Origin: Acidobacteriota bacterium
Lineage (GTDB): Bacteria > Acidobacteriota > Vicinamibacteria > Marinacidobacterales > Marinacidobacteraceae
Assembly (NCBI GenBank): GCA_022828085.1
Contig: JAJEIY010000046.1
Location: 556-64,555 of the forward strand
DNA length: 64,000 bases
Direction: 5' to 3'
The notes under the pieces are model-generated. The model saw only the letters and a list, made by a program, of their open reading frames with translations, ran no database searches and was not told the DNA's origin. Shown here piece by piece: positions 5,418 through 57,498 of the stretch. A program made the position numbers and the translations under genes. Position 1 is the first letter of the stretch. Each line of letters begins with the position of its first letter.

Positions 5418-6131
5418 GTGGCGGCCGCACCGATCTCCGGACCGGTGCTGGCCATCGATACGACGGGCACGCTGGGGAGCGTCGCCCTGGGTTTCGCCGG
5501 CCCGGAGGGCGCCCTGACCGGGGACGTCGTCGAGGGTTTCGAACCCTCGAACCTCCACTCACGGAATCTCCTGCCCGCGATCCGGCGCGTCATGGCGCAG
5601 GCAGGGCTCGAGACCTCGGACCTCGCCCTGCTGGTCGCGACCCGGGGGCCGGGTTCGTTTACCGGGCTCCGGATCGGTCTCGCCACCGCACAGGGGTTCG
5701 CGCTGGCGGCCGGAGTCCGGGCCGCCGGCGTTTCGAGCCTCGATGCGGCGGCCCTCGCGGATGCGGCCGCGAGCGGTTCCGGGCTGCGCCGCCTGGTTGT
5801 CGTGGACGCGCTCCGAGGTGAACTCTTCGCCGCCCTCTACGACGGAGCCGGTCCGGAGGCGCTCGTCCAGGGACCTTGCCGCCTGCTCCCGCAGGACGCT
5901 GCGGGGTGGGCCGGTCAGCACGGCGCCGCCCGGATCTGCGGACCCGCGGTGTTGCGTTATCGCGACGCGATCGGCCGGGGGCGCCCGGAGATCGAGATCG
6001 TGGAAGCCCGGCGGGCGCTGGCGCCCGCGGCTCTCCGTCTGGGAGTACAGGCGGCGCGGCGGCGGAAAACCACGCTGGAGCCGCTCTATCTGCGGGAGCC
6101 GGATATCCACGGTCGTTCCGTTACGCTATAG
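5418..6131 (+). CDS. tsaB: tRNA threonylcarbamoyladenosine biosynthesis protein TsaB (YeaZ)
   Basis: LAIDTTGTLGSVAL and SFTGLRIGLATAQGFA motifs. Likely GTG start at 5418, so the 5268 ATG gives an implausible extension. Confidence 0.7.
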   Translation: MAAAPISGPVLAIDTTGTLGSVALGFAGPEGALTGDVVEGFEPSNLHSRNLLPAIRRVMAQAGLETSDLALLVATRGPGSFTGLRIGLATAQGFALAAGVRAAGVSSLDAAALADAAASGSGLRRLVVVDALRGELFAALYDGAGPEALVQGPCRLLPQDAAGWAGQHGAARICGPAVLRYRDAIGRGRPEIEIVEARRALAPAALRLGVQAARRRKTTLEPLYLREPDIHGRSVTL

Positions 6132-6353
6132 ATAGAAACAACCTGTGGACAGAGTCACGCGGCCCTCATCGTTGCGTTTCGGTGGGAACGCAGTCCGGCC
6201 GGATTGGCCAGCCGGGGCTCGTTCCCCGAGTCCCACCCGCGCCGGGGAAACCGGCGTTCGCGGTGCTCGCGTCGCTTTCTCCACGGGCGACTGGGCGACG
6301 TTTGTCCGAAGCGGTTCCGGACCCACCGTCCGGATGGCTTTCTGGAGGCCTTC

Positions 6354-11600: not shown

Positions 11601-12593
11601 TGCGTAAAGAGCCGCTTCGGCTTCCCGTTCCGCGCGGCGTGCGGCGGCCGGGGCCACGGCGGTGCTGGCGGCGCCGAGCAACTGACCGTCGTATGCCCGG
11701 AGGGCGAAGTAGTAGCGCTGCGCATCGCCGGCGCCGTCCACGAAACGATCGCCGCGGCGCTCGAAGAGCTGCGCCAGAGCCTCCAGGTCCGCCGCGCCGT
11801 CCAGAAACTGCGTCTCGAGCCCCCGTCCGGCGGCGAGCTCGAGCGCCGAGCGCGGCGCGGCGCCCGAGGAGGGAGGTGATGCCTCCCGGACGGGAACCTC
11901 GACGGTGACCACCCCGAGCAGGTTCCGGGTACATTCGGCGGCGGCCAGGTAGTCGCGCCGGCCGCCCTCGCTGTACACGAAGAGCGGAAACGCCGGGTCG
12001 GGGCAGTGCTCTTCCCGGACCCCGTCGGGAAACACCCCGGAGAGGGCCTCTTCGAAGTCCGGATTGCCTCCCGACCACGCCAGCGGGCGCAACTGCCGGT
12101 CGTAGAGGGTCGCGCCGCCTTCGCCGATACCGGTGCCGGGAAGCGGCCACTCGGACAGGGCGCGGAAGGCGCGGGACTCCGTGCCGCCCGCATCCGAGCC
12201 TTCGAGCGCGGCGGCCACCGGCGCCGTCCGCGCGACCAGGTAGGCGGCATCCCCGACCTCCCGGGTCAGGTCGGCGAGAAAAGTGTCCACCCGATCCGCC
12301 GCCCGGGAAGCCGACTCCGGCCCCGCGGTGATCGTCCGGCCGAGCGGGATGCGGCAGGAGAGCGCCACCAGAGCCGCTGCGGCCAGAATCAGGGCGATCT
12401 GCCGGCTGCCGGAAGGCAGCAGGTCACGCCGGAACAGGACGAGGAGGAGCAGCAGCGCGGTGGCCGCCGTCAGCGCGGCGTGGACGGCGGCCGGGAAGAT
12501 GGCGAACCGGTTCGCGGCGTCGGCAAGTCCGGCCGCGAAGACGGCGAACGCGCCCCCGACCATGAGGAGGGGTGGCAGACGATCGCTCTTCAT
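8649..12593 (-). CDS. sensor histidine kinase with ~14 TM helices, several extracytoplasmic domains, HAMP, HisKA and HATPase_c
   Basis: C-terminus carries a HisKA H-box (VAHDIKNALAPI) and an ATPase (NGPGVPKGLRERIFDAAFSTRTRGSGLGLA). True start is MKSDRLPPLLMVGGAFAVFAAGLA (ATG at 12593). The 180-aa low-complexity extension in the tool ORF is antisense to the next gene. Confidence 0.75.
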   Translation of the reverse strand: MKSDRLPPLLMVGGAFAVFAAGLADAANRFAIFPAAVHAALTAATALLLLLVLFRRDLLPSGSRQIALILAAAALVALSCRIPLGRTITAGPESASRAADRVDTFLADLTREVGDAAYLVARTAPVAAALEGSDAGGTESRAFRALSEWPLPGTGIGEGGATLYDRQLRPLAWSGGNPDFEEALSGVFPDGVREEHCPDPAFPLFVYSEGGRRDYLAAAECTRNLLGVVTVEVPVREASPPSSGAAPRSALELAAGRGLETQFLDGAADLEALAQLFERRGDRFVDGAGDAQRYYFALRAYDGQLLGAASTAVAPAAARRAEREAEAALYATLTLLLGILVALPYLRRFGDLGTLVAIWTLRFALSALLGTLPSGPGAALPAFLADTPLLPVLGDSPLMAVVTAAAVLVSARIAAIRLRPGSGSRTPGAIHALLRGLGAGGAAVVAAALVQSAGFSGGAPLTPTWDLHTRWPEVLGWAALLLVLAGLLLVLQSLLRPEVPVLVAAAAVVAVSAAFLPGGSLLFAGLPLLAGAVVAFWRRGRLSLRHLRQPLLAHEPGFSFLVAFLLFAVPPVLLYPAMAWHEDSVRQRYALDAAPVQALRHRFAVCHALEEATRTLDSEAASLARLRPDSAYRLWLSTGLPRLTVASALEVRGPGGGRSRFGVGLPRRPDPPSSAPSPPRWSPIPECAAASGIEAVLETERQFPSGAGVTLRVADRTSEIPFLPRAAGIGDHFLLRGDAAPAVFRGRGLRLSHRASLPVERDEGPVEVGVLVHGEPFVISWRRTGLADHAGALLGWGFLAALIALLVAVAARARLLFPHREGRLRRRSFQMQLTEALAAAVLIAILGVAIFAQQRLGVLLESASDRAAISRSFSVRRVAQELAALDPLIPRDELALRLAQAADQLDTDAALYNGGELVAVSRPELAQTGLLPPRPPPAAILPSTSPDPFLSIQDAGSLRYRIVWIHLDTPARLHGPLLLAVPLPADEAARLESVRAIQRTLILGSGSLALIFAIVLPALVARRLAAPVRGLARATGRIADGDLQARVPVHGTLTELRLLAASVERLVRRIPDVRRQMREEAAADLARRVAHDIKNALAPIGLAADYIRRVLREPRGRDPQAAVDEGVSEILDQVERLRRISSEFSALGAPLRLQETDVTKLVEDTVGPHRRPHARPRVRFQGAPTPVARVDPEIVARIVENLLQNALEATLDFPEIPPEEAEVSVRVLPVRHGRWIRIEVEDNGPGVPKGLRERIFDAAFSTRTRGSGLGLANARRFTEAHGGKVIARARADRRTGLLLVVELPVDGPREKEVS

Positions 12594-12656
12594 GCCTCGG
12601 ATAGCCGGCTGTCGGCAGCCCGTGGATCGCCGCTCGCGGGGTTCACGGGGGTTTCG

Positions 12657-12670
12657 CCACAGGCTGCTAG
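12657..12670 (+). promoter_or_regulatory. conserved motif CCACAGGCTGCTAG, 11 nt upstream of the GTG start of the PQQ-propeller gene
   Basis: One of three identical 13-14-mers in the window (see 25987 and 45269). Confidence 0.5.
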
Positions 12671-25210: not shown

Positions 25211-25702
25211 ATGATCGGAATCGTGGTGGTTACCCACGGACAACTGGCGAGAGAACTCGTGGCTGCCGCGGAAATGATCACCGGGGAGGACATCCCCAAC
25301 GCCACCAGCGTTTCCATCGGCTGGCACGACGCACCGGACGATGCCCAGCGCGCCATCGTGACGGCGGTGGAACGCGTGTCCGGAACGGAGGGGGCGGTCA
25401 TCCTCACGGACATGTTCGGGGGAACGCCGTCCAATCTGGCGCTCAGCCTCCTCAACGAGAACCAGGTCGAAGTCGTGACGGGAGTGAACCTCCCCATGCT
25501 CATCCGCCTGGTCTCGATCCGGGAGGAAGAGCAGGTTGGCCCGGCGGAAGCGGCGCGGGCAGCGCTCTTCCAGGGCAAGGAGAACATCTATCTCGCATCC
25601 GAGCTGCTGGGAGGCGGGGTCGGCGTTGCGCCAGCGGGCGACGAGTCCGAGGAGGCGGCCGGAACCGTTGCGGAGGACCCGGCCGGGCCGGACCCGGGCT
25701 AA
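25211..25702 (+). CDS. PTS EIIA component, mannose/fructose family
   Basis: MIGIVVVTHGQLARELVAAAEMI and ILTDMFGGTPSN are typical of EIIA-Man. Sits in the rpoN-linked position usually held by ptsN. Confidence 0.75.
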   Translation: MIGIVVVTHGQLARELVAAAEMITGEDIPNATSVSIGWHDAPDDAQRAIVTAVERVSGTEGAVILTDMFGGTPSNLALSLLNENQVEVVTGVNLPMLIRLVSIREEEQVGPAEAARAALFQGKENIYLASELLGGGVGVAPAGDESEEAAGTVAEDPAGPDPG

Positions 25703-26000
25703 GCAGCCTGTGATGAAACTCGCGCGGCATTCCCGAGCTACGAACTATGCGGGCCGGCTCTCGCCGTCCCGCATGGTCCGTGCTCAAGGGGTCTACGCGG
25801 GGCTCGACTCTCGCCCCGCTCCGGAAGCAACACCCGCTGCATCCCCGCTGAACCGCTCGCCTTTGGCTCGCTCATCGTTGCGCTTCGGTCGGAATACATT
25901 CGGTATTCCTCCCTCGCGCGCCTTGTCAGCGAGGCGCAGCGGGCACCAGTTCTCCCGGTGGGGGGCCGGTGCTCACGCCAGTTCCACCACAGGCTGCTAA
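25702..26000. repeat. ~299-bp intergenic element bounded by 11-bp inverted repeats (AGCAGCCTGTG ... CACAGGCTGCT); locally lower GC; holds a 33-nt block conserved with 6166-6198
   Basis: Inverted termini read from the sequence. The internal block CTCATCGTTGCGCTTCGGTCGGAATACATTCGG (25871-25903) matches 28/34 with CTCATCGTTGCGTTTCGGTGGGAACGCAGTCCGG at 6166-6199. A CCTGTGG half-site also lies at 6142-6148. Confidence 0.5.
25987..26000 (+). promoter_or_regulatory. conserved motif CCACAGGCTGCTAA, 29 nt upstream of the ptsH GTG; right end of an element flanked by inverted repeats
   Basis: Identical over 13 nt with the copies at 12657 and 45269. Its reverse complement AGCAGCCTGTG occurs at 25702-25712. 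Confidence 0.5.
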
Positions 26001-26029
26001 CTCCGGACACACGTCGGCAGGGAGGGAGC

Positions 26030-26338
26030 GTGCCGGAACGGGTCGTCCTCGTCACGAACCAGTTGGGGATGCACGCCCGGGCGGCGGCGCGCTTCGTGAA
26101 GACGGCGGCGCGTTACGAAGCCGTGGTGACCGTGACTCGCGGCGAGACCACGATCGACGGCAAGAGCATTCTGGGACTCCTGTTTCTCGCCGCTGCCAAG
26201 GGCAGCCGGCTTCGGATCCACACCTCGGGGCGGGAGGCGGCGCCGGCGCTCGAAGCCCTCACCAGGCTGGTCCAGCAGGGAATCGGAGATCCGCCGGAGT
26301 CGGGGGCCGACGGCGTCCACGCGGGTGAGCCGCCATGA
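26030..26338 (+). CDS. ptsH: phosphocarrier protein HPr
   Basis: VPERVVLVTNQLGMHARAAARFV (active His in GMHAR). GTG start with a GGAGGGAG RBS. 4-nt overlap with ptsI. Confidence 0.7.
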   Translation: MPERVVLVTNQLGMHARAAARFVKTAARYEAVVTVTRGETTIDGKSILGLLFLAAAKGSRLRIHTSGREAAPALEALTRLVQQGIGDPPESGADGVHAGEPP

Positions 26339-44754: not shown

Positions 44755-45255
44755 GTGGAGATCGAGGTAAGCATCAAGGCGATCCTGATGGTGCCGCGGA
44801 CCAGCGCGGCGGTCGTGATGCTCAAGGAGGAGTCCGGGGATCGGGAAGTCCCCATCTGGGTCGGCCCCATGGAGGTCCGCGCGATCGGCCTGCAGATCGA
44901 GAACTACGAGCCGCCCCGGCCGTTCACGCACGACCTGATCCGGGAACTGCTCCGGGAACTGGATGCCCGGGTCACCAAGGTGGTGATCCACGATGTGCAG
45001 GACAACACCTTCTACGCGCACGTCCATCTCCAGCGCAAGCGCCAGCGGTTGGCGGTGGACGCCCGGCCAAGCGACGCGATCGCCCTCGCGCTGAGGACGA
45101 GGGCGCCCATCTTCGTCCATTCCCGCGTCATCGAACGCGGCGCGCGGCGCGCGGAGGAACTCATGGCGGAGGACGTCGAACCTCCGGAGGACAGCGAGGC
45201 GCTCGGCGACTGGCTGGAAGCTCTGGACGAGGACGACCTCGGTGATACGCACTAG
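44755..45255 (+). CDS. bifunctional nuclease family protein (BFN/DUF151)
   Basis: AVVMLKEESGDREVPIWVGPMEVRAIGLQI...RPFTHDL and an acidic C-terminus. Probable GTG start at 44755; the tool start at 44650 lies inside miaB. Confidence 0.6.
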   Translation: MEIEVSIKAILMVPRTSAAVVMLKEESGDREVPIWVGPMEVRAIGLQIENYEPPRPFTHDLIRELLRELDARVTKVVIHDVQDNTFYAHVHLQRKRQRLAVDARPSDAIALALRTRAPIFVHSRVIERGARRAEELMAEDVEPPEDSEALGDWLEALDEDDLGDTH

Positions 45256-45268
45256 AGCGTGACCTTGT

Positions 45269-45282
45269 CCACAGGCTGCTAG
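45269..45282 (+). promoter_or_regulatory. conserved motif CCACAGGCTGCTAG, 10 nt upstream of the parA ATG
   Basis: Third copy of the motif; same orientation and spacing as the copy at 12657. Confidence 0.5.
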
Positions 45283-45292
45283 ACGTCGCCCG

Positions 45293-50221: not shown

Positions 50222-51553
50222 GTGATCCAGGACGAGGCGCGGCTCTCCCGCTGGGCCCAACTCGAATTCCCCGACGGAACGCCGGCGGAAGAGGCGCGTG
50301 CGCTCGTAGCCCTGATCCGGCGCGACGGCTGGCGCGTCCACAGGGGGGACGGCACCCGCCTGGTCATATCCGAGGTCCCCGCCAGCGACGATCCTCCCGC
50401 CGCACTGATGAAGGCGCTAAACGCCCCCGTGAATCCGGCGGGCCTCTCGGCCCTCGCGGAGGTGGTCGAGCAGGTTCGCGCCTGGGATTCGGGCTGGCAG
50501 GCGCGTTTCCCCGCCCGCCTGGAACGCTGGAACTTCAGCAAGGAGCAGCCTCCAGAATCGAGGTTGCTCGCCTTCCCCGGCCCCCAGGAGCCCGCCCCGG
50601 ACGAATTCCGGCCGGGCTACTTGCCGTTCAACGACGCGCCGACGCATCCGGAGGCGCCACCACTGCCTCCCGCACTTGCGGCGTTCGACTTCCTCGGTGG
50701 ACAGTCCATGCGCAGCGGACGCGGCGTGACCCACGAGGCCCGGCTCGTCGTTCACGTGCTCGGCAACCTGAGCCCGGCCGCACGCAAGAGCGGCGTCCTG
50801 ACTCCGCAGTACTTCTCCGCGGCCGAGATGGCGGCGGAATTGTGGGAGGAGATCCCCCGAGGGGGCCGGGCGATCCGGATGCTGCGCCGGGCGCTGGACC
50901 GCATGACGCGCCTCGAGGCCGGCCCCATCACACTTCCCGATGGATCCCTTGCCGCCCTGCGGCCCCTGATGATCGGCGCCATGCCTTACGGGCTCGACGG
51001 CTCGGTAGAGATCTTCGTCCGGCTCCCGCCAGACCCCGACGGGCGGGGCTTCCGGTACGACCGGCTGCGAGCCCGGCACTGGGCGCGGCGGGCGGCGCCG
51101 CACTGGCGGCTCTATTTCGCCGCCTGCTTCCTGCGCGACCGTTTCGCCATCGATGGACGGGGAATCGAGCTGACGATTCCCGAAGTGCAGCGCGGCCGCG
51201 GAGGGGTCATTCTCGACGCCGCCGGCAACCCCGTGTTCAGCAAAGGGCAGCCGGTCCTGGAGTGGCATCACCCGAAAGCGATCGCCACGGGGACGCGGCT
51301 CCCCAACCCCGCCGCTAGCCGCCTTCAGATCTATTCCCTCGCCGACCTTACCCGGGTTGCGTGCGGCCCTCCTCCGGACCATTTGAGCAAGGAGGGGCGC
51401 TACAAGCGCCGTGTGCGAACCGAGCAGGCGCTCACGGATCTCCAGGACGCGGGCGACCTGGAATTCGAACTCGCGGACGACCCGTGTGGCCGACGCCGCT
51501 TCCGGATCGCGGCCGTGGATCCTCGGCGCAGGCACCGCCGACTCATCGAGTAG
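50222..51553 (+). CDS. hypothetical protein; candidate iteron-binding replication initiator (assigned by position only)
   Basis: 443-aa ORF with coding-like GC3 and no family recognised by eye; ends 30 nt before six tandem iterons. Confidence 0.4.
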   Translation: MIQDEARLSRWAQLEFPDGTPAEEARALVALIRRDGWRVHRGDGTRLVISEVPASDDPPAALMKALNAPVNPAGLSALAEVVEQVRAWDSGWQARFPARLERWNFSKEQPPESRLLAFPGPQEPAPDEFRPGYLPFNDAPTHPEAPPLPPALAAFDFLGGQSMRSGRGVTHEARLVVHVLGNLSPAARKSGVLTPQYFSAAEMAAELWEEIPRGGRAIRMLRRALDRMTRLEAGPITLPDGSLAALRPLMIGAMPYGLDGSVEIFVRLPPDPDGRGFRYDRLRARHWARRAAPHWRLYFAACFLRDRFAIDGRGIELTIPEVQRGRGGVILDAAGNPVFSKGQPVLEWHHPKAIATGTRLPNPAASRLQIYSLADLTRVACGPPPDHLSKEGRYKRRVRTEQALTDLQDAGDLEFELADDPCGRRRFRIAAVDPRRRHRRLIE

Positions 51554-51585
51554 CCGAGTAGCCAACCCATCCCCGCAAGGGTTGT

Positions 51586-51709
51586 GTGTGTTTCCAGGGC
51601 GACCGGTGTGTTTCCAGGGCGACCGGTGTGTTTCCAGGGTCACCTGGTGTGTTTCCAGGGTCACCTGGTGTGTTTCCAGGGTCACCTGGTGTGTTTCCAG
51701 GGTCACCGG
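51586..51709. repeat. six tandem iterons: 2 x GTGTGTTTCCAGGGCGACCG (20 bp) + 4 x GTGTGTTTCCAGGGTCACC(T)G (21 bp)
   Basis: Direct tandem repeats read from the sequence (unit starts 51586, 51606, 51626, 51647, 51668, 51689). Confidence 0.85.
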
Positions 51710-52239: not shown

Positions 52240-52974
52240 GTGACCGCGCCGAAGTTCCAGGCGTGGCTTCGGGCTCTGAACGCCCAGGGCTACGACATCT
52301 TCGTGTCGATGAATCCCATCAACCCGGAGCGGCGACGCCGCGAGAAGCAGGACGTGGCGAAGGTGCGCCGGCTCCAGCTCGACCTGGACCGCAACGGCCC
52401 CGAGTCCCTGCATCGCGTGCTCGCCGACGTGCATGCGGGTTCCCTGCCCCGCCCCGCGGCTGTGGTCCGGAGCTCACGCCACAACTACCAGGTCATCTGG
52501 CACGCGGATCCGGACGTCTGGACCGCTCCGGAGGCCGAGGACACCATGCGCCGCCTGGCGGCCCGCTACGGGGGCGACTCCTCGGTCGCCGACGTCGCCC
52601 GCGTCATGCGTGTGCCGGGCTTCCGCAACAAGAAACCGGAGCGCGACGACGCGCCCGTGCAGTGGACCGACCACGCTGGCCGGCCGACGCGCCCGGATGC
52701 GTTCGCGCATCTCCCGAAGGTGGAGCATTCCCTGCAGCGCTCCCCCGGCACGGGACGTCAGATCGAGGGCCGCGACACCAGCCAGTCCGCCCGGGACTGG
52801 GCCTATGCCAAGGACCAGCTCCGCAAGGGCGTCCCCCAGGAGAAGGTCATCGCCGCGCTTGAGAAGCGCCGCGCCGGCGAGAAGCACGACCCCCGCTACT
52901 ACGCCGAGCGGACCACCCGCAAGGCATTCCTCGACATCCAGCGTCCGCGCGCGCGGGCGCTGCCATCCCGCTGA
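52240..52974 (+). CDS. RepB'-type DNA primase-like protein (plasmid primase family)
   Basis: Motifs LQLDLD (DxD), SSRHNYQVIWH and GGD..VADVARVMRVPGFRNKK resemble RSF1010 RepB'-like primase hallmarks. Confidence 0.5.
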   Translation: MTAPKFQAWLRALNAQGYDIFVSMNPINPERRRREKQDVAKVRRLQLDLDRNGPESLHRVLADVHAGSLPRPAAVVRSSRHNYQVIWHADPDVWTAPEAEDTMRRLAARYGGDSSVADVARVMRVPGFRNKKPERDDAPVQWTDHAGRPTRPDAFAHLPKVEHSLQRSPGTGRQIEGRDTSQSARDWAYAKDQLRKGVPQEKVIAALEKRRAGEKHDPRYYAERTTRKAFLDIQRPRARALPSR

Positions 52975-52995: not shown

Positions 52996-53214
52996 ATGGG
53001 AATCAGAGAAATCGAGATCGAGGGCAAACCCGCCCTCAGCGTCGACACCGAGGAGGAGTTCGCTCAGGTCTTCGACCGCGGGCTGCCCATCGAGGCCCCG
53101 CGAGAGGTCGTCGACGCCTTCGGCATCCCCGGCGCCGACGAGAACGGCGACCCCCTCGACACCGACGAGCCTTCGGCTGAGTTTGACGACCTGGCTCTGG
53201 AGGACCAGCCCTAA
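52996..53214 (+). CDS. small highly acidic protein (72 aa; candidate DNA-mimic / anti-restriction protein)
   Basis: Strong RBS AAAGGAG 9 nt upstream. About 35% Asp+Glu (..DTEEEFAQVFD..DENGDPLDTDEPSAEFDDLALEDQP). Confidence 0.5.
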   Translation: MGIREIEIEGKPALSVDTEEEFAQVFDRGLPIEAPREVVDAFGIPGADENGDPLDTDEPSAEFDDLALEDQP

Positions 53215-53248
53215 CCGCGCGGAACCCCGCGCCGCATGAGTAACCAAC

Positions 53249-54334
53249 ATGGCCGAAGCCAAAGCCAACACTCGCGGCCGGGACCGCATCACCGAGTACC
53301 ACCAGCAGTTTGCCGCCGCGATCATCAAGCAGATCGAGGCCGGCACCGCCCCCTGGCAGCGCCCCTGGAAACCCGGCGAGCAGCTCCTTCCCCGTAACCC
53401 CTTCACGGGCAACCGATACACCGGCGGCAACGCCCTCGGCCTCGCGCTCGAGGGCGCGCAACGCGGCTTCGCCGACCATCGCTGGGCCACCTACCGCCAG
53501 ATCAAGGAAGCCGGCGGCCACGTCCGCAAGGGCGAACGCGGCGCACAGATCCTCTACTTCCAGAACCGGAAGCTGCTTGCCAAGAAGGACGACCAGGGCC
53601 GTCAAATGGTCGACTCCGACGGCCGCACCGTCTACGAACGCCCCGACAAACCGCGGCTCCTCGTCCGCGTCTACACCGTCTTCAACGCCGAGCAAGCCGA
53701 AGGACTCGACCTGCCCCCGCGCGACGCGACCGCGCCCGAGTGGCAACGCCACCAGGCGGCCGAAGCCGTGATCGAAACCTCCAACGTCCCGATCAAACAC
53801 GCACCCGGCAATCGCGCCTACTACAGCTCAAGAGCCGACCAGATCGTCCTCCCCGAGCGCCGCCAGTTCCCGTCCGCCGAGCACTACTACGCGACGGCTC
53901 TCCACGAGCTTTCACACGCGTCCGGACACAAGAGCCGGATGGACCGCGAGACCTTCCACAACGCCGTCAAATACCCCACGGGCGGCTTCGGCAGCGCGCC
54001 CTACGCCCGCGAAGAGCTCCGGGCGGAAATCGCCGCCATGATGACCGGCGAGCGCATCGGCATTGGCCACCACCCGCAGGACGGCCACTGCGGCAACAGC
54101 GCGGCGTACGTCGAGAGCTGGATCAAAGCCCTCAAAGACGACCCACGCGAGATCTACCGCGCGGCCGCCGAGGCCACCCGCATCTCCGACTTCCTCGTGA
54201 AGCCGGCCCGCGAGCGGATCCAGGAGATCGGCCGGGACGAGCCGTCCTCACCGGACGCCGCCGAGATGCGCGTTCCCGCGCTCACGCATCCGTCTCCCGC
54301 GCGGCAGCAGCCGGCCATGACGCCCCGACGATGA
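53249..54334 (+). CDS. ardC: ArdC-like antirestriction protein (N-terminal ssDNA-binding DUF1738 domain plus C-terminal zincin-like metalloprotease domain with an intact HExxH)
   Basis: ArdC-N motifs AGTAPWQRPW and RYTGGNALGLAL; C-domain YYATALHELSHASGH. Confidence 0.7.
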   Translation: MAEAKANTRGRDRITEYHQQFAAAIIKQIEAGTAPWQRPWKPGEQLLPRNPFTGNRYTGGNALGLALEGAQRGFADHRWATYRQIKEAGGHVRKGERGAQILYFQNRKLLAKKDDQGRQMVDSDGRTVYERPDKPRLLVRVYTVFNAEQAEGLDLPPRDATAPEWQRHQAAEAVIETSNVPIKHAPGNRAYYSSRADQIVLPERRQFPSAEHYYATALHELSHASGHKSRMDRETFHNAVKYPTGGFGSAPYAREELRAEIAAMMTGERIGIGHHPQDGHCGNSAAYVESWIKALKDDPREIYRAAAEATRISDFLVKPARERIQEIGRDEPSSPDAAEMRVPALTHPSPARQQPAMTPRR

Positions 54335-54395
54335 GCCTCCCATCTCATGCCCAGCCTCCGCGCGATCCCGAAACCCCCCACCAGGAGTAAGAATC

Positions 54396-55532
54396 ATGGC
54401 TGAAGCCACTCCTGCGTGGCGAAGGTTCCTGAGGAACCTGCGCTGGGGCAACCCTGGGAAAAACCGGGCCTGGGACGAGGGGGGAGTCAAGGTCGCCGGG
54501 CCCCCGGCAAGACCACCGACCAAAAAAAACGCCGCCCGCCCGCACCGCCTGGCCGGTAGAAGCCGAGAGTCCCACCTCCACGGCCCGCTGGGCGATTACT
54601 ACCGGATGTTTGCCGAGACCGCCATCCGGCAGATGGAGGAAGGCACCGCGCTCTGGCACTGCCCGTCAGAGGACGGGGAGCGGGTTCTGCCCCGGAACGC
54701 CGTCACTCACCGCGCCTACACCGCCGGCAACGCCATCTACCTGGCCGTCCGCGGCCAGGACCGCGGCTTCCGCGACAACCGCTGGATGACCCTGCAGCAG
54801 ATCAAGGAGGCCGGCGCCCTGCCGCCGGACGGACCCGGCGAACGGATCCTCGTCCGCCACGACCGCAAGGGCCAGAAGCCCGTCTGCCGCACCTCCACCG
54901 TCTACAACGTCGAGCAGGTCCGCGGCCTCAACCTCGAGCGGCGCATGCCGCGTCCGGCGGACTGGCTCGCGGAACGCGGCGCCGACGCTGTCATCGCCGC
55001 TTCCGCCGTCGAGATCAAGCACACCGACGAGCCCTATAGCTGGCCCTACTACCGCGGGAACCGCAACCAGATCGTCCTGCCCAACTGGAAGAAAACCGCG
55101 AGCAGCAACCACTACTACAGCACCGCGCTTCGGAACATAGCCTGCGCATCCACACACGAAGATCGAACGGACCGCTGGCCACCTCCCCGCGAGCTGCTGC
55201 GCGCGGACATCGCCACCATCACGGTCTGCGACCGGTTGGGGCTCGGCTACCAGCCGCTTGCCGAGAATCCGCAGGATATTCGCGACCCGACCGGGGCTCC
55301 CGACTACACGGAGGCCTGGATCAAGGCCCTCAAGGAGGACCCGCGCGAGATGCACCGCGCGGCATCCGAGGGCCACCGCATCGCGGAGCACCTCATCCAG
55401 CCGGCCCGCGCGCAGTTACGGAACATCGTCCGCAAGGCACACGCCGCGCTCGATGCGGAGATGCTCGAAGGCACATCCCCCGCCCGTCCGTCTCCCGTGC
55501 GCCCGCAGCCGGCCATGACGCCCGGACGATGA
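54396..55532 (+). CDS. ArdC-like paralog 2 (HExxH replaced by RNIAC; N-terminus divergent, possible frameshift near an A8 run at 54524-54531)
   Basis: Core FAETAIRQMEEGTALW...YTAGNAIYLAV is homologous to copy 1. The C-domain reads YYSTALRNIACASTHEDR and the C-terminus ..PQPAMTPGR parallels copy 1. Confidence 0.6.
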   Translation: MAEATPAWRRFLRNLRWGNPGKNRAWDEGGVKVAGPPARPPTKKNAARPHRLAGRSRESHLHGPLGDYYRMFAETAIRQMEEGTALWHCPSEDGERVLPRNAVTHRAYTAGNAIYLAVRGQDRGFRDNRWMTLQQIKEAGALPPDGPGERILVRHDRKGQKPVCRTSTVYNVEQVRGLNLERRMPRPADWLAERGADAVIAASAVEIKHTDEPYSWPYYRGNRNQIVLPNWKKTASSNHYYSTALRNIACASTHEDRTDRWPPPRELLRADIATITVCDRLGLGYQPLAENPQDIRDPTGAPDYTEAWIKALKEDPREMHRAASEGHRIAEHLIQPARAQLRNIVRKAHAALDAEMLEGTSPARPSPVRPQPAMTPGR

Positions 55533-55593
55533 GCCTCTCATCCCGTGCGCGGACCCCGCGCGATCCCGAAACCCCCAACCGGGAGTAACCAAC

Positions 55594-56586
55594 ATGGCCG
55601 AAGCCAAAACCTCTCCCTCGAAGCCCGCGATCGACTCGCCCAGCCGCTACTACGGGAAGTTCGCCGAGACCGCCATCCGGCAGATGGAGGAAGGCACCGC
55701 GCCTTGGCAGCGCGCCGCGAAGGCCGGCGAGCGGGTCCTGCCCCGAAACGCCATCACCCACCGCGCCTACACCGGCGGCAACGCCGTCTACCTGCCCGTC
55801 CGCGGCCAGGACCGCGGCTTCACCGACAACCGCTGGATCACCATGCAGCAGATCAAGGAGGCCGGCGCCCAGCCGCCGAAGGGGCCCGGCGAACGCATCC
55901 TCGTCCGCCAGGAACGCGACGGGCAGAAGCCCGTCTGGCGCACCTCCATCGTCTACAACGTCGAGCAGGTCCGCGGCCTCAAGCTCGACCGGCGCCCGCC
56001 GCGGCCGGAATGGCAGGCGCACCGCGGCGCCGACGCCGTCATCGCCGCCTCCGCCGTCGAGATCAAGCACACCGCCGGCGAACACAACTACTACAACAAG
56101 GAGCACGACCAGGTCGTCCTCCCCGAGCGGAAGCAGTTCCGGAGTCCGGAGCACTACTACAGCACCGCGCTGCGGAACATGGCCCACGCCTCCGGACACG
56201 AGAGCCGGATGGACCGCGAGACCTTCAAGCAGACCCACAGCGAGGGTCTGGACGGCGCGGCGCACGGCCGCGAGAAGCTCCGTGTCGAGATCGCCACCAT
56301 GACGGCGGGCGACCGGCTCGGCGTCGGCTACCAGCCGCAGCACGATCCCAGCTACAAGGAGCTCTGGATCAAGGCCCTCAAGGAGGACCCGCGCGAGATG
56401 CACCGCGCAGCCTCCGAGGGCCACCGCATCGCGCGGAACCTCATCAAGCCCGCCCGCGAACAGCTGCGGGGCATCGCCCGCGAAGCGCGCGCCGCGCGCG
56501 ATGCGGAGACGCCCGAACGCGCTCCCCAGGCCCCTCCGAAAGCCATGCCCCAGCGCCAGGTGCCGGCGATGTCCCCCGCGCGCTGA
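55594..56586 (+). CDS. ArdC-like paralog 3 (HExxH replaced by RNMAH)
   Basis: MAEAK.. start and a -35 to -1 upstream region conserved with copies 1 and 2; YYSTALRNMAHASGHESRMDRETF. Confidence 0.65.
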   Translation: MAEAKTSPSKPAIDSPSRYYGKFAETAIRQMEEGTAPWQRAAKAGERVLPRNAITHRAYTGGNAVYLPVRGQDRGFTDNRWITMQQIKEAGAQPPKGPGERILVRQERDGQKPVWRTSIVYNVEQVRGLKLDRRPPRPEWQAHRGADAVIAASAVEIKHTAGEHNYYNKEHDQVVLPERKQFRSPEHYYSTALRNMAHASGHESRMDRETFKQTHSEGLDGAAHGREKLRVEIATMTAGDRLGVGYQPQHDPSYKELWIKALKEDPREMHRAASEGHRIARNLIKPAREQLRGIAREARAARDAETPERAPQAPPKAMPQRQVPAMSPAR

Positions 56587-56595
56587 CCCCCGCCC

Positions 56596-57498
56596 ATGAG
56601 TCGCCGTCCGGAGCCCCGCCATCCCACCAGGCCGGCCGCCCCCCGCGGCCGCGAGCCTTGGCGCACCGGACACCGCCGGGAACACGGTTCCCGGGACGGC
56701 GCTCCCCGCGGCCGGGACCGGCGCGAAGGCGCGCTCGTGGACATCAGCGCCCATCGAGTCGCCGCCTACCAGGACATCGCGGCCGTCCACTTCGACGGCC
56801 ACCCCTACGCCGCGCGCGCCGGCATCAACCGCCTCAAGCGCGAGGGCCTCGTGACCGAGCATCAGGCGGACGGGCCGAACGGCGGCTCCTTCACTGTCCT
56901 GGCGGCGACCAGGAAGGGAGCCGCGGAGGCGCAGGCCGCCGCGGAGAGCCGCGGCGGCGCCGACGGACAGCACTTCTGGAGCGGGATCGGACGCCGCGAG
57001 GACCTCGCCCACGACGTCGCCGTCTACCGCGCCGTGCTTGCCGCCCGGGAAGAGCTCGCCGCCAAGGGAGTCGAGGCGCTCCGGGTCCGGCTCGACGCGG
57101 AGCTGCGCCGCATCGTGGTCCGGCGGAGCGAGCGGGCCCGGGCCCGGGCGGGGCGGAAGGCGGCCGACGCCGAACGGCGGCGCGCGGCCGCCGAGCTCGG
57201 ACTTCCCCACTCCCCGGAGGGGGCGGTGTCGTTCCCGGACGCGCAGCTCGAATACACCCTCGAGGAGGATGCCGGGGGACAGACGTTCGGCCGGGTGAAC
57301 ATCGAGGTCACCACCGAGCACTACCGCGAAGGCGCGATCGCGGCGAAGGCCGCGGCGGGCTTCGCGCTCCACGGCTCGAACGGCAAGGCCGGCCGCCTCA
57401 TCGCGAGAACCATCGCGAAAGCCTTTCGGGAGGCGGCAAGACCACAGCGCAGCGGCGGGGGGAGGGACCCGACACCGCGGGAGCTGATGGAGATCTGA
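56596..57498 (+). CDS. hypothetical protein (Arg/Ala-rich; start uncertain)
   Basis: ORF with coding-like bias between the ArdC triplet and the T4SS genes; no family recognised. Confidence 0.35.
   Translation: MSRRPEPRHPTRPAAPRGREPWRTGHRREHGSRDGAPRGRDRREGALVDISAHRVAAYQDIAAVHFDGHPYAARAGINRLKREGLVTEHQADGPNGGSFTVLAATRKGAAEAQAAAESRGGADGQHFWSGIGRREDLAHDVAVYRAVLAAREELAAKGVEALRVRLDAELRRIVVRRSERARARAGRKAADAERRRAAAELGLPHSPEGAVSFPDAQLEYTLEEDAGGQTFGRVNIEVTTEHYREGAIAAKAAAGFALHGSNGKAGRLIARTIAKAFREAARPQRSGGGRDPTPRELMEI

Follow-up and report, generated by a model that had tools for sequence, protein, structure and literature searches.

A probable modular miniature transposon between the EIIA and ptsH genes of a Vicinamibacteria genome

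What occupies the spacer that separates two genes of the phosphotransferase system (PTS), EIIA and ptsH, in an uncultured member of the Acidobacteriota? We addressed this question in a stretch of 64,000 nucleotides of contig JAJEIY010000046.1 (assembly GCA_022828085.1, Acidobacteriota bacterium of the class Vicinamibacteria, forward strand, positions 556 to 64,555), hereafter the window. Our analyses show that positions 25702-25997 are very probably a long-form copy, which we call copy A, of a non-autonomous DNA transposon or miniature inverted-repeat transposable element (MITE), from a family abundant in marine and sponge-associated Vicinamibacteria. The family combines small non-coding size, terminal inverted repeats, a target duplication seen by comparing filled and empty sites, and a high and polymorphic copy number; like RUP elements, it inserts specifically at TA with a 2-bp duplication. 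The element is of an ordinary kind, in a lineage where none has been described as far as literature searches show: those on Marinacidobacterium, Vicinamibacteria repetitive elements and Acidobacteria MITEs yielded no description of the family, an absence that they do not prove.

Results

From two inverted repeats to a family of probable transposons

The initial annotation had singled out this spacer for perfect 11-bp inverted repeats around a stretch of lower GC, and for a 33-nt block that it shares with the spacer between tsaB and a DUF465 gene. The left repeat, AGCAGCCTGTG, is indeed at 25702-25712, where it overlaps the EIIA stop codon TAA (25700-25702); the right one, CACAGGCTGCT, lies at 25988-25998, one base to the left of the 25989-25999 first given. 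The 33-nt block (25871-25903) has its second copy at 6166-6199, with 28 of 34 positions identical by hand count (local blastn within the window, E=0.001-0.003), and sequence and alignment bear out the spacing CCTGTG-N10-CGCGGC common to both copies. The element does have a lower GC content than the window (0.664 against 0.697), but the difference is marginal, the EIIA gene itself being at 0.671. The alignment also makes the likeness of the two spacers broader than first noted, with both termini aligning as well as the core. The 11-bp repeats are the tips of terminal inverted repeats of ~25-30 bp, and the 33-nt block is the best-conserved core of an element of ~186 nt. By itself, the 11-bp inverted repeat is not above chance, the window containing 54 k-mer pairs of perfect 11-mer inverted repeats no more than 350 nt apart against ~30 in Markov simulations, and its significance comes from the family. 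The same expectation of about 30 such repeats, together with an E value of ~1e-3 for the core match alone, might be taken to mean that the inverted repeat and the 33-nt match are a fortuitous likeness in a GC-rich spacer. That reading has a negligible probability and is refuted by the profile match of copy A (E=3.6e-36) and by the hundreds of copies elsewhere with the same architecture.

The first 19 nt of the core (CTCATCGTTGCGYTTCGGT), searched in one genome per species, match in at least 120 stretches of 8 kb, against ~9 chance matches expected by our own estimate, and in no viral contig. Among the matches listed, all belong to marine or sponge-associated Acidobacteriota metagenome-assembled genomes (MAGs) labelled Vicinamibacteria or ‘Candidatus Marinacidobacterium’, and several are complete chromosomes with dozens of core matches each. 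Exact cores amount to at least 174 instances, one being the window’s own contig and at least 173 lying in related genomes. The initial annotation had named a lack of further copies genome-wide as one of two findings that together would speak against a repeat; what we find is many more copies in related genomes. A profile hidden Markov model built from 14 canonical copies and searched at E<=1e-3 against ~1 Mb of retrieved loci (designated by L numbers below) returned 322 matches; in that search the copies of the window had E values of 5.7e-35 and 3.1e-6. In copies with both ends, the canonical unit measures ~186 nt including a TA at each end. It opens with TA, (G/A)CAGCCTGTGG...CGCGGC, continues through an inner arm into the core CTCATCGTTGCG(C/T)TTCGGTCG(A/G)AATAC..., and closes with the other inner arm, ...GCTCACG...CCACAGGCTG(C/T) and TA. 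Long forms reach ~300 nt. A small minus-strand open reading frame (ORF) running through the core (...KRNDE...) was considered and rejected: the window’s two core-bearing copies, A and B, diverge after the core, and no frame is open in all copies of the family. The high copy number in relatives, the terminal repeats that covary from end to end and the TA duplication at filled and empty orthologous sites thus bear out the initial suggestion of a MITE-like repeat family.

Insertion at TA and reconstruction of stop codons

In three filled/empty pairs of orthologous loci (L043/L103, L010/L079 and L082/L051) the empty site has a single TA and the filled one reads TA-element-TA; a fourth pair, L112/L121, fits a TA duplication, its empty site having since diverged to TG. 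The flanks of filled and empty members are ~78-99% identical, and genomes are polymorphic for these insertions. In 42 of 45 copies, the nucleotide that follows the left TA can pair with the one preceding the right TA (A-U in 21 and G-C in 21). This TA-adjacent base is therefore part of the inverted repeat and only 2 bp are duplicated, which speaks against a 4-bp YTAR duplication of the IS5-like kind. We conclude that the family inserts at TA and duplicates it, and that it has been mobile since related species diverged.

TA dinucleotides are rare in a genome of ~70% GC, and stop codons are natural targets. Of 475 termini, 292 have TA, and 288 of these 292 read TAG or TAA. Each end reads TA(G/A), so that insertion into the TA of a TAA or TAG stop codon rebuilds the stop. 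In 63 cases a terminus coincides exactly with the stop of the called gene next to it. Of 228 repeat regions, 226 are outside any called gene, making the copies almost exclusively intergenic; these gene context statistics come from our own codon-usage gene caller, which reproduces the Pfam-confirmed genes of the window. For EIIA, the reconstructed empty site reads ...GGC TA ACTCC..., with TAA as the stop, whereas in the filled state the stop is made of TA plus the first base of the element. The family therefore offers a clear case of a TA-targeting element in a genome of ~70% GC, where stop codons are among the few TA sites and the TA(G/A) ends restore the stop.

A separate observation concerns L056:6457-6466, the empty counterpart of L041:863-1048, which reads TAGCAGCCCGTGAAGAC and resembles a leftover left terminus; instead of a clean empty site, this may be the footprint of an excision or a deletion.

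Strand-specific structure and orientation

Across 45 canonical copies, the whole element is an imperfect rod-like palindrome, with 63 pairs on the reverse strand (the window’s minus strand) and 98.1% of cells paired. Compensatory changes affect 28 of the 63 pairs, a number as high as none of 500 shuffles attains, and slid-partner controls are 33-40% paired. Helix 1, formed by the terminal repeats, contains 27 pairs (columns 3-31 against 159-186; 97.4% paired, 14 with a compensatory change), and two terminal-repeat subfamilies covary left and right. In the core, the Y of GCGYTTCGG covaries with an R 33 nt downstream (UA in 33 cases, CG in 11). The consensus energy is -101 kcal/mol for the reverse strand versus -45 for the forward strand, and the mean minimum free energy -114 versus -93; copy A folds at -188.5 kcal/mol on the minus strand (z=-8.3), against z=-3.9 on the plus strand. 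At paired columns, rare variants are G·U in 55 cases versus A·C in 12 (p=1e-7; distinct events, 31 versus 9). Because reverse-strand pairing is kept by compensatory and G·U-compatible changes, a single-stranded form of that strand, whether RNA or DNA, appears to be under constraint.

Orientation is not random either. Where the genes on both sides are co-directional, the weaker-folding forward strand lies in sense in 95 instances and in antisense in 43 (p=1e-5). Both window copies have this majority orientation, their weaker-folding strand being the sense of the flanking genes. In several chromosomes (CAXXLQ010000004.1, OZ252286.1 and OZ244986.1; loci L003-L122), element orientation follows long blocks that track the local gene direction, which suggests a replichore-linked bias; the bias could therefore stem from replication rather than transcription. 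Local GC skew, measured in 8-kb bins, carries too much noise for the origin and terminus to be located.

Modular architecture

Full-length copies cluster at ~186, 204, 222, 240 and 258 nt, that is, ~186 + n x 18. The steps correspond to 0-4 copies of an 18-20-nt hairpin, the h module (CCAGTTCTCCCGGTGGGGGC), which occupies several insertion positions in both orientations. We counted 318 copies of it in ~1 Mb of loci, a few of them in unrelated intergenic contexts (among the examples of the module are L017:5664, L039:1181, L047:4441, L071:7891 and L108:3625); it behaves like an independent insertion. At many sites, halves of the element also form tandem arrays (for instance L106:6664-7109, L094:6495-6656 and L005:5431-6020), with a period of ~71 nt for left halves and ~130-200 nt for right halves, and orthologous sites differ in the length of these arrays by hundreds of bases.

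The copy between EIIA and ptsH

Copy A is 84-87% identical to the family consensus, and the family profile matches it in two pieces, 25701-25757 and 25834-25999, the latter with the E value given above. Its parts are listed in Table 1 along with the neighbouring genes and the other copies. The left terminal repeat has one extra A relative to the canonical (G/A)CAGCC start, and folding pairs it with the right one (25965-25997). Covarying pairs in helix 2 and helix 5 involve the left inner arm. The optional X module, situated between the left terminal repeat and the left inner arm, recurs in L031, L015 and the ortholog L123, its hairpin showing compensatory changes, and has 11 exact 17-mer matches in the loci. 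ORFs that overlap copy A have no Pfam match.

Table 1. Parts of copy A, flanking genes and other family members in the window
Feature	Position	Strand	Evidence and remarks
PTS EIIA gene (mannose/fructose type)	25211..25702	+	Pfam EIIA-man E=8e-26; stop TAA 25700-25702
Putative left TA of target duplication	25700..25701	.	From TA-flanked family termini and filled/empty pairs in relatives
Left terminal inverted repeat AGCAGCCTGTGATGAAACTCGCGCGGCATTC	25702..25732	+	nhmmer model positions 2-56, E=1e-4; 27/31 identical to consensus
Optional X module, ~97 nt, two hairpins closed by TTCCCGAGC / GCTCCGGAA	25733..25829	+	Long-form copies only
Left inner arm, subfamily type CCCGCTG...CGCTGAACCGCTCGCC	25830..25870	+	Aligns with L118/L097/L066-type copies; pairs with right inner arm
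Conserved core	25871..25931	+	33-nt block (25871-25903), hairpin GGAATAC/GTATTCC, GCGY...RCGC stem
Right inner arm ...GAGGCGCAGCGGGCA	25932..25945	+	Complementary to 25830-25845
h hairpin module (18-20 nt), one copy, CCAGTTCTCCCGGTGGGGG	25946..25964	+	Exact match, the sole one in the window
Right terminal inverted repeat ...GGTGCTCACGCCAGTTCCACCACAGGCTGC	25965..25997	+	nhmmer match reaching model position 186
Putative right TA of target duplication	25998..25999	.	Sequence; family pattern
ptsH (HPr) gene	26030..26338	+	Pfam PTS-HPr E=7e-24; GTG start 31 nt past the element
Copy B, degenerate short derivative	6138..6291	+	Between tsaB (stop 6129-6131) and DUF465 gene (start 6354)
Termini-only mini remnant GCAGCCCGTGG...CCACAGGCTGC, then TA	12614..12670	+	nhmmer E=0.002 (match 12626-12670)
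Solo right terminus AGCGTGACCTTGTCCACAGGCTGC	45256..45281	+	nhmmer E=0.008 (match 45257-45281)

EIIA is preceded by lptB and rpoN, and ptsH is followed by ptsI, all on the plus strand. The closest relative recovered, L123, whose HPr is 86% identical, carries an element at the same site between the EIIA stop and ptsH: a TAG stop is followed by CAGCCTGTGG..., and the terminal-repeat type, the X module and the downstream flank are as in copy A. In L123 the core has been lost, h modules stand in its place and the right TA is mutated to TG. The presence of the element at this orthologous site, with both copies decayed, implies that the insertion is old, has been inherited vertically and is decaying. 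Copy A would have been inserted into the EIIA TAA before the window organism split from the relative that bears L123, and would have decayed since, as its 84-87% identity to the consensus and the extra base at its left end indicate. It would be co-transcribed with rpoN-EIIA-ptsH-ptsI in the weaker-folding orientation, probably tolerated rather than required.

The initial proposal that the element supplies the motif nearest the ptsH start does not stand. The ribosome-binding site of ptsH, GGGAGGGAG, and the start codon are in the flank, outside the element; a scan of 25500-26200 for sigma-70 promoters and intrinsic terminators found none; and the L123 ortholog does without the 33-nt core. We also discarded a conserved cis-regulatory ptsH leader, given that L123 keeps the termini and the X module with the core gone, and that EIIA and ptsH are only ~30 nt apart in a relative at 52% identity. 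A sigma-54 promoter of the GG-N10-GC type, sought by eye around the core, was rejected for its wrong spacing (13 and 11 nt).

Other copies in the window

The copy at 6166 had been proposed to be a deletion derivative, and its organization agrees with this. In copy B, the left terminal repeat (6138-6165) runs straight into the core (6166-6199), beyond which come an interior that has diverged and, at ~6263-6291, the right terminal repeat; nhmmer gives E=1.9e-7 and 0.026, and 84 of 113 positions (~74%) are identical to the consensus. The mini remnant at 12614-12670 is located upstream of a gene on the minus strand whose start is at 12593. At 45.26 kb, the solo terminus is enclosed by TAG...TAG (45253-45283), of which the first TAG (45253-45255) ends the upstream gene, and a ParA-like gene is found 10 nt past it; either an internal deletion or an excision may have left this terminus behind.

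Discussion

Mechanism and alternative explanations

The element would move by cut-and-paste, with an IS630/Tc1-mariner-type DDE transposase acting in trans. This class assignment comes from the TA duplication alone, which among known transposases is the signature of the IS630/Tc1-mariner superfamily. Several points weigh against our interpretation. We detected no autonomous element or transposase with matching ends, either in the window or in the flanking loci (~1 Mb): searches covering terminal-repeat pairs spaced by 0.6-4 kb, orphan ends beside genes and multi-copy proteins among 767 called ORFs found no pair enclosing an ORF, no orphan end beside a gene and, among the proteins, only housekeeping orthologs. 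For the EIIA-ptsH locus itself we have no empty site, the sole close relative being also filled and the distant ones too diverged to align. Tandem half-unit arrays and a nested 18-nt module are unusual for such an element, and strand-asymmetric, RNA-like covariation with an orientation bias is not explained by double-stranded cut-and-paste transposition. Finally, the gene caller behind the context statistics has been checked only on the Pfam-confirmed genes of the window.

These properties call for weighing the MITE against two other kinds of element. The spacer might primarily encode a functional structured RNA, either cis-acting in the rpoN-EIIA/ptsH-ptsI operon or a small RNA from the minus strand, with repetition as a secondary property. 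The minus-strand fold of copy A (z=-8.3), the compensatory changes in 28 of 63 pairs, the excess of G·U over A·C (55 to 12) and the non-random orientation all speak in its favour, as does the precedent of the Correia and ERIC MITEs, which affect mRNA stability in an orientation-dependent manner (PMC2229807). Yet no Rfam family matches anywhere in the window at the gathering threshold, ARAGORN detects no tRNA or tmRNA, and Rfam searches of both spacers in E-value mode give as best hits E=0.74 and 0.83, to unrelated eukaryotic or other families. Promoter- or terminator-like sites are lacking in 25500-26200, the copies are mobile, duplicate TA and sit beside unrelated genes, the orthologous L123 copy has lost the conserved core, and the strand that folds strongly runs antisense to the operon at this locus, as it does to the flanking genes in two thirds of co-directional contexts. 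We therefore regard a primary RNA function as improbable; of the structured RNA family that the initial annotation had envisaged, what survives is structure as a secondary property of a transposon, without any Rfam match.

A mosaic repeat akin to repetitive extragenic palindromic (REP) sequences and bacterial interspersed mosaic elements (BIMEs), moving as single-stranded DNA through a Y1 transposase (RAYT or IS200-IS605-like) that reads hairpins of one strand, would account for a hairpin constraint on one strand only, for the mosaic build with its tandem arrays, for an h module that is REP-sized and also found outside the element, and for an orientation in long chromosomal blocks that could mirror the direction of replication. 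It is nevertheless hard to reconcile with the 2-bp TA duplication at filled and empty sites, since to our knowledge REP and IS200/IS605 elements make no target duplication. Terminal inverted repeats of 25-30 bp that covary between the two ends, and a unit of 186 nt rather than 20-40 nt, point the same way, and no multi-copy transposase gene is seen in the loci. The ends read TA(G/A)CAGCC, without the GTAG or CGTC that defines REP tags (PMC3733652). The wrong size, the missing tag and the target duplication lead us to abandon the REP-like family also suggested initially, and a REP/BIME-like origin to be judged very improbable. An IS200/IS605-derived PATE, with neither terminal repeats nor target duplication, with subterminal hairpins and with insertion 3' of a fixed tetra- or pentanucleotide, was rejected because the family has both long terminal repeats and a TA duplication.

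The MITE remains by far the most probable reading. A stronger version, which we consider rather unlikely, would hold that the reverse strand is selected to form the 63-pair rod, as RNA or single-stranded DNA, and that the element is more than a selfish MITE; separately, the h module would constitute an ultra-small insertional element in its own right, spreading into the MITE and elsewhere by steps of 18 nt. If the reverse-strand rod were indeed selected, the elements would punctuate operons or replication in an orientation-dependent manner, or would give rise to antisense RNAs.

Comparison with known elements

Stowaway-type MITEs of eukaryotes, derived from Tc1/mariner, are shorter than 500 bp, form hairpins and have a TA duplication, and many Tc1/mariner ends begin with (A)CAG after the TA. 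The terminal repeats described here also begin with (A)CAG after TA, which is a lead only: these MITEs belong to another domain of life and no relationship is demonstrated. Modularity recalls BOX of Streptococcus pneumoniae and the BIMEs of Escherichia coli, whose modular or mosaic build involves internal modules that vary in number and are sometimes in tandem, BIMEs being built of REPs and linked to RAYT transposases; we know of no TA duplication with long terminal repeats in either.

The Correia/NEMIS elements of Neisseria are closer in design, with 100-155 bp, terminal repeats of ~24 bp, TA termini and duplication, a mostly intergenic location and co-transcribed stem-loops (PMC2229807). The family described here has no sequence similarity to them and an acidobacterial host, and it differs by its whole-length rod, its optional modules of 18 and ~100 nt and its tandem half-unit arrays; no IHF site or promoter function is demonstrated for it. 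ERIC/IRU of enterobacteria is likewise an imperfect palindrome over its whole length (~127 bp) with TA termini and duplication, intergenic and co-transcribed, ERIC having orientation-dependent effects on mRNA stability (PMC2229807), and there is similar evidence for conservation of structure at the single-strand level. However, the terminal repeats of ERIC measure 7 bp (PMC2229807) and its copy number is low in most hosts, against 25-30 bp, hundreds of copies and a modular build here. RUP of S. pneumoniae, a MITE of ~107 bp mobilised by IS630-Spn1, inserts at TA and has terminal repeats that match an IS630-family element (PMC2229807). It provides the model for the mechanism that we propose, with the difference that its partner insertion sequence is known whereas none was found here in the loci or the window.

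Implications

For annotation, repeat is the appropriate label for the EIIA-ptsH spacer and for hundreds of similar stretches in MAGs of marine and sponge Vicinamibacteria, rather than regulatory region or RNA gene. Such repeats break short-read assemblies of these uncultured bacteria. The family could be used as a marker for strain typing or insertion polymorphism in the lineage. Three features are unexplained and merit the attention of specialists, namely the constraint specific to one strand, the 18-nt module with its quantised steps and the arrays of half-units; they leave the overall picture unchanged.

Additional observations

Two further repeats were noticed in the window. In the 687-nt spacer between a gene ending at 51553 and one starting at 52240, about six tandem copies of a 21-nt unit (GGTGTGTTTCCAGGGTCACCT) extend over 51584-51707 and could constitute an array of protein-binding sites. 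Further on, at 53200-56600, three tandem paralogous units of ~1.05-1.3 kb, 65-88% identical and with similar GAGTAACCAACATGGCCGAAGCC start regions, represent a tandemly triplicated gene.

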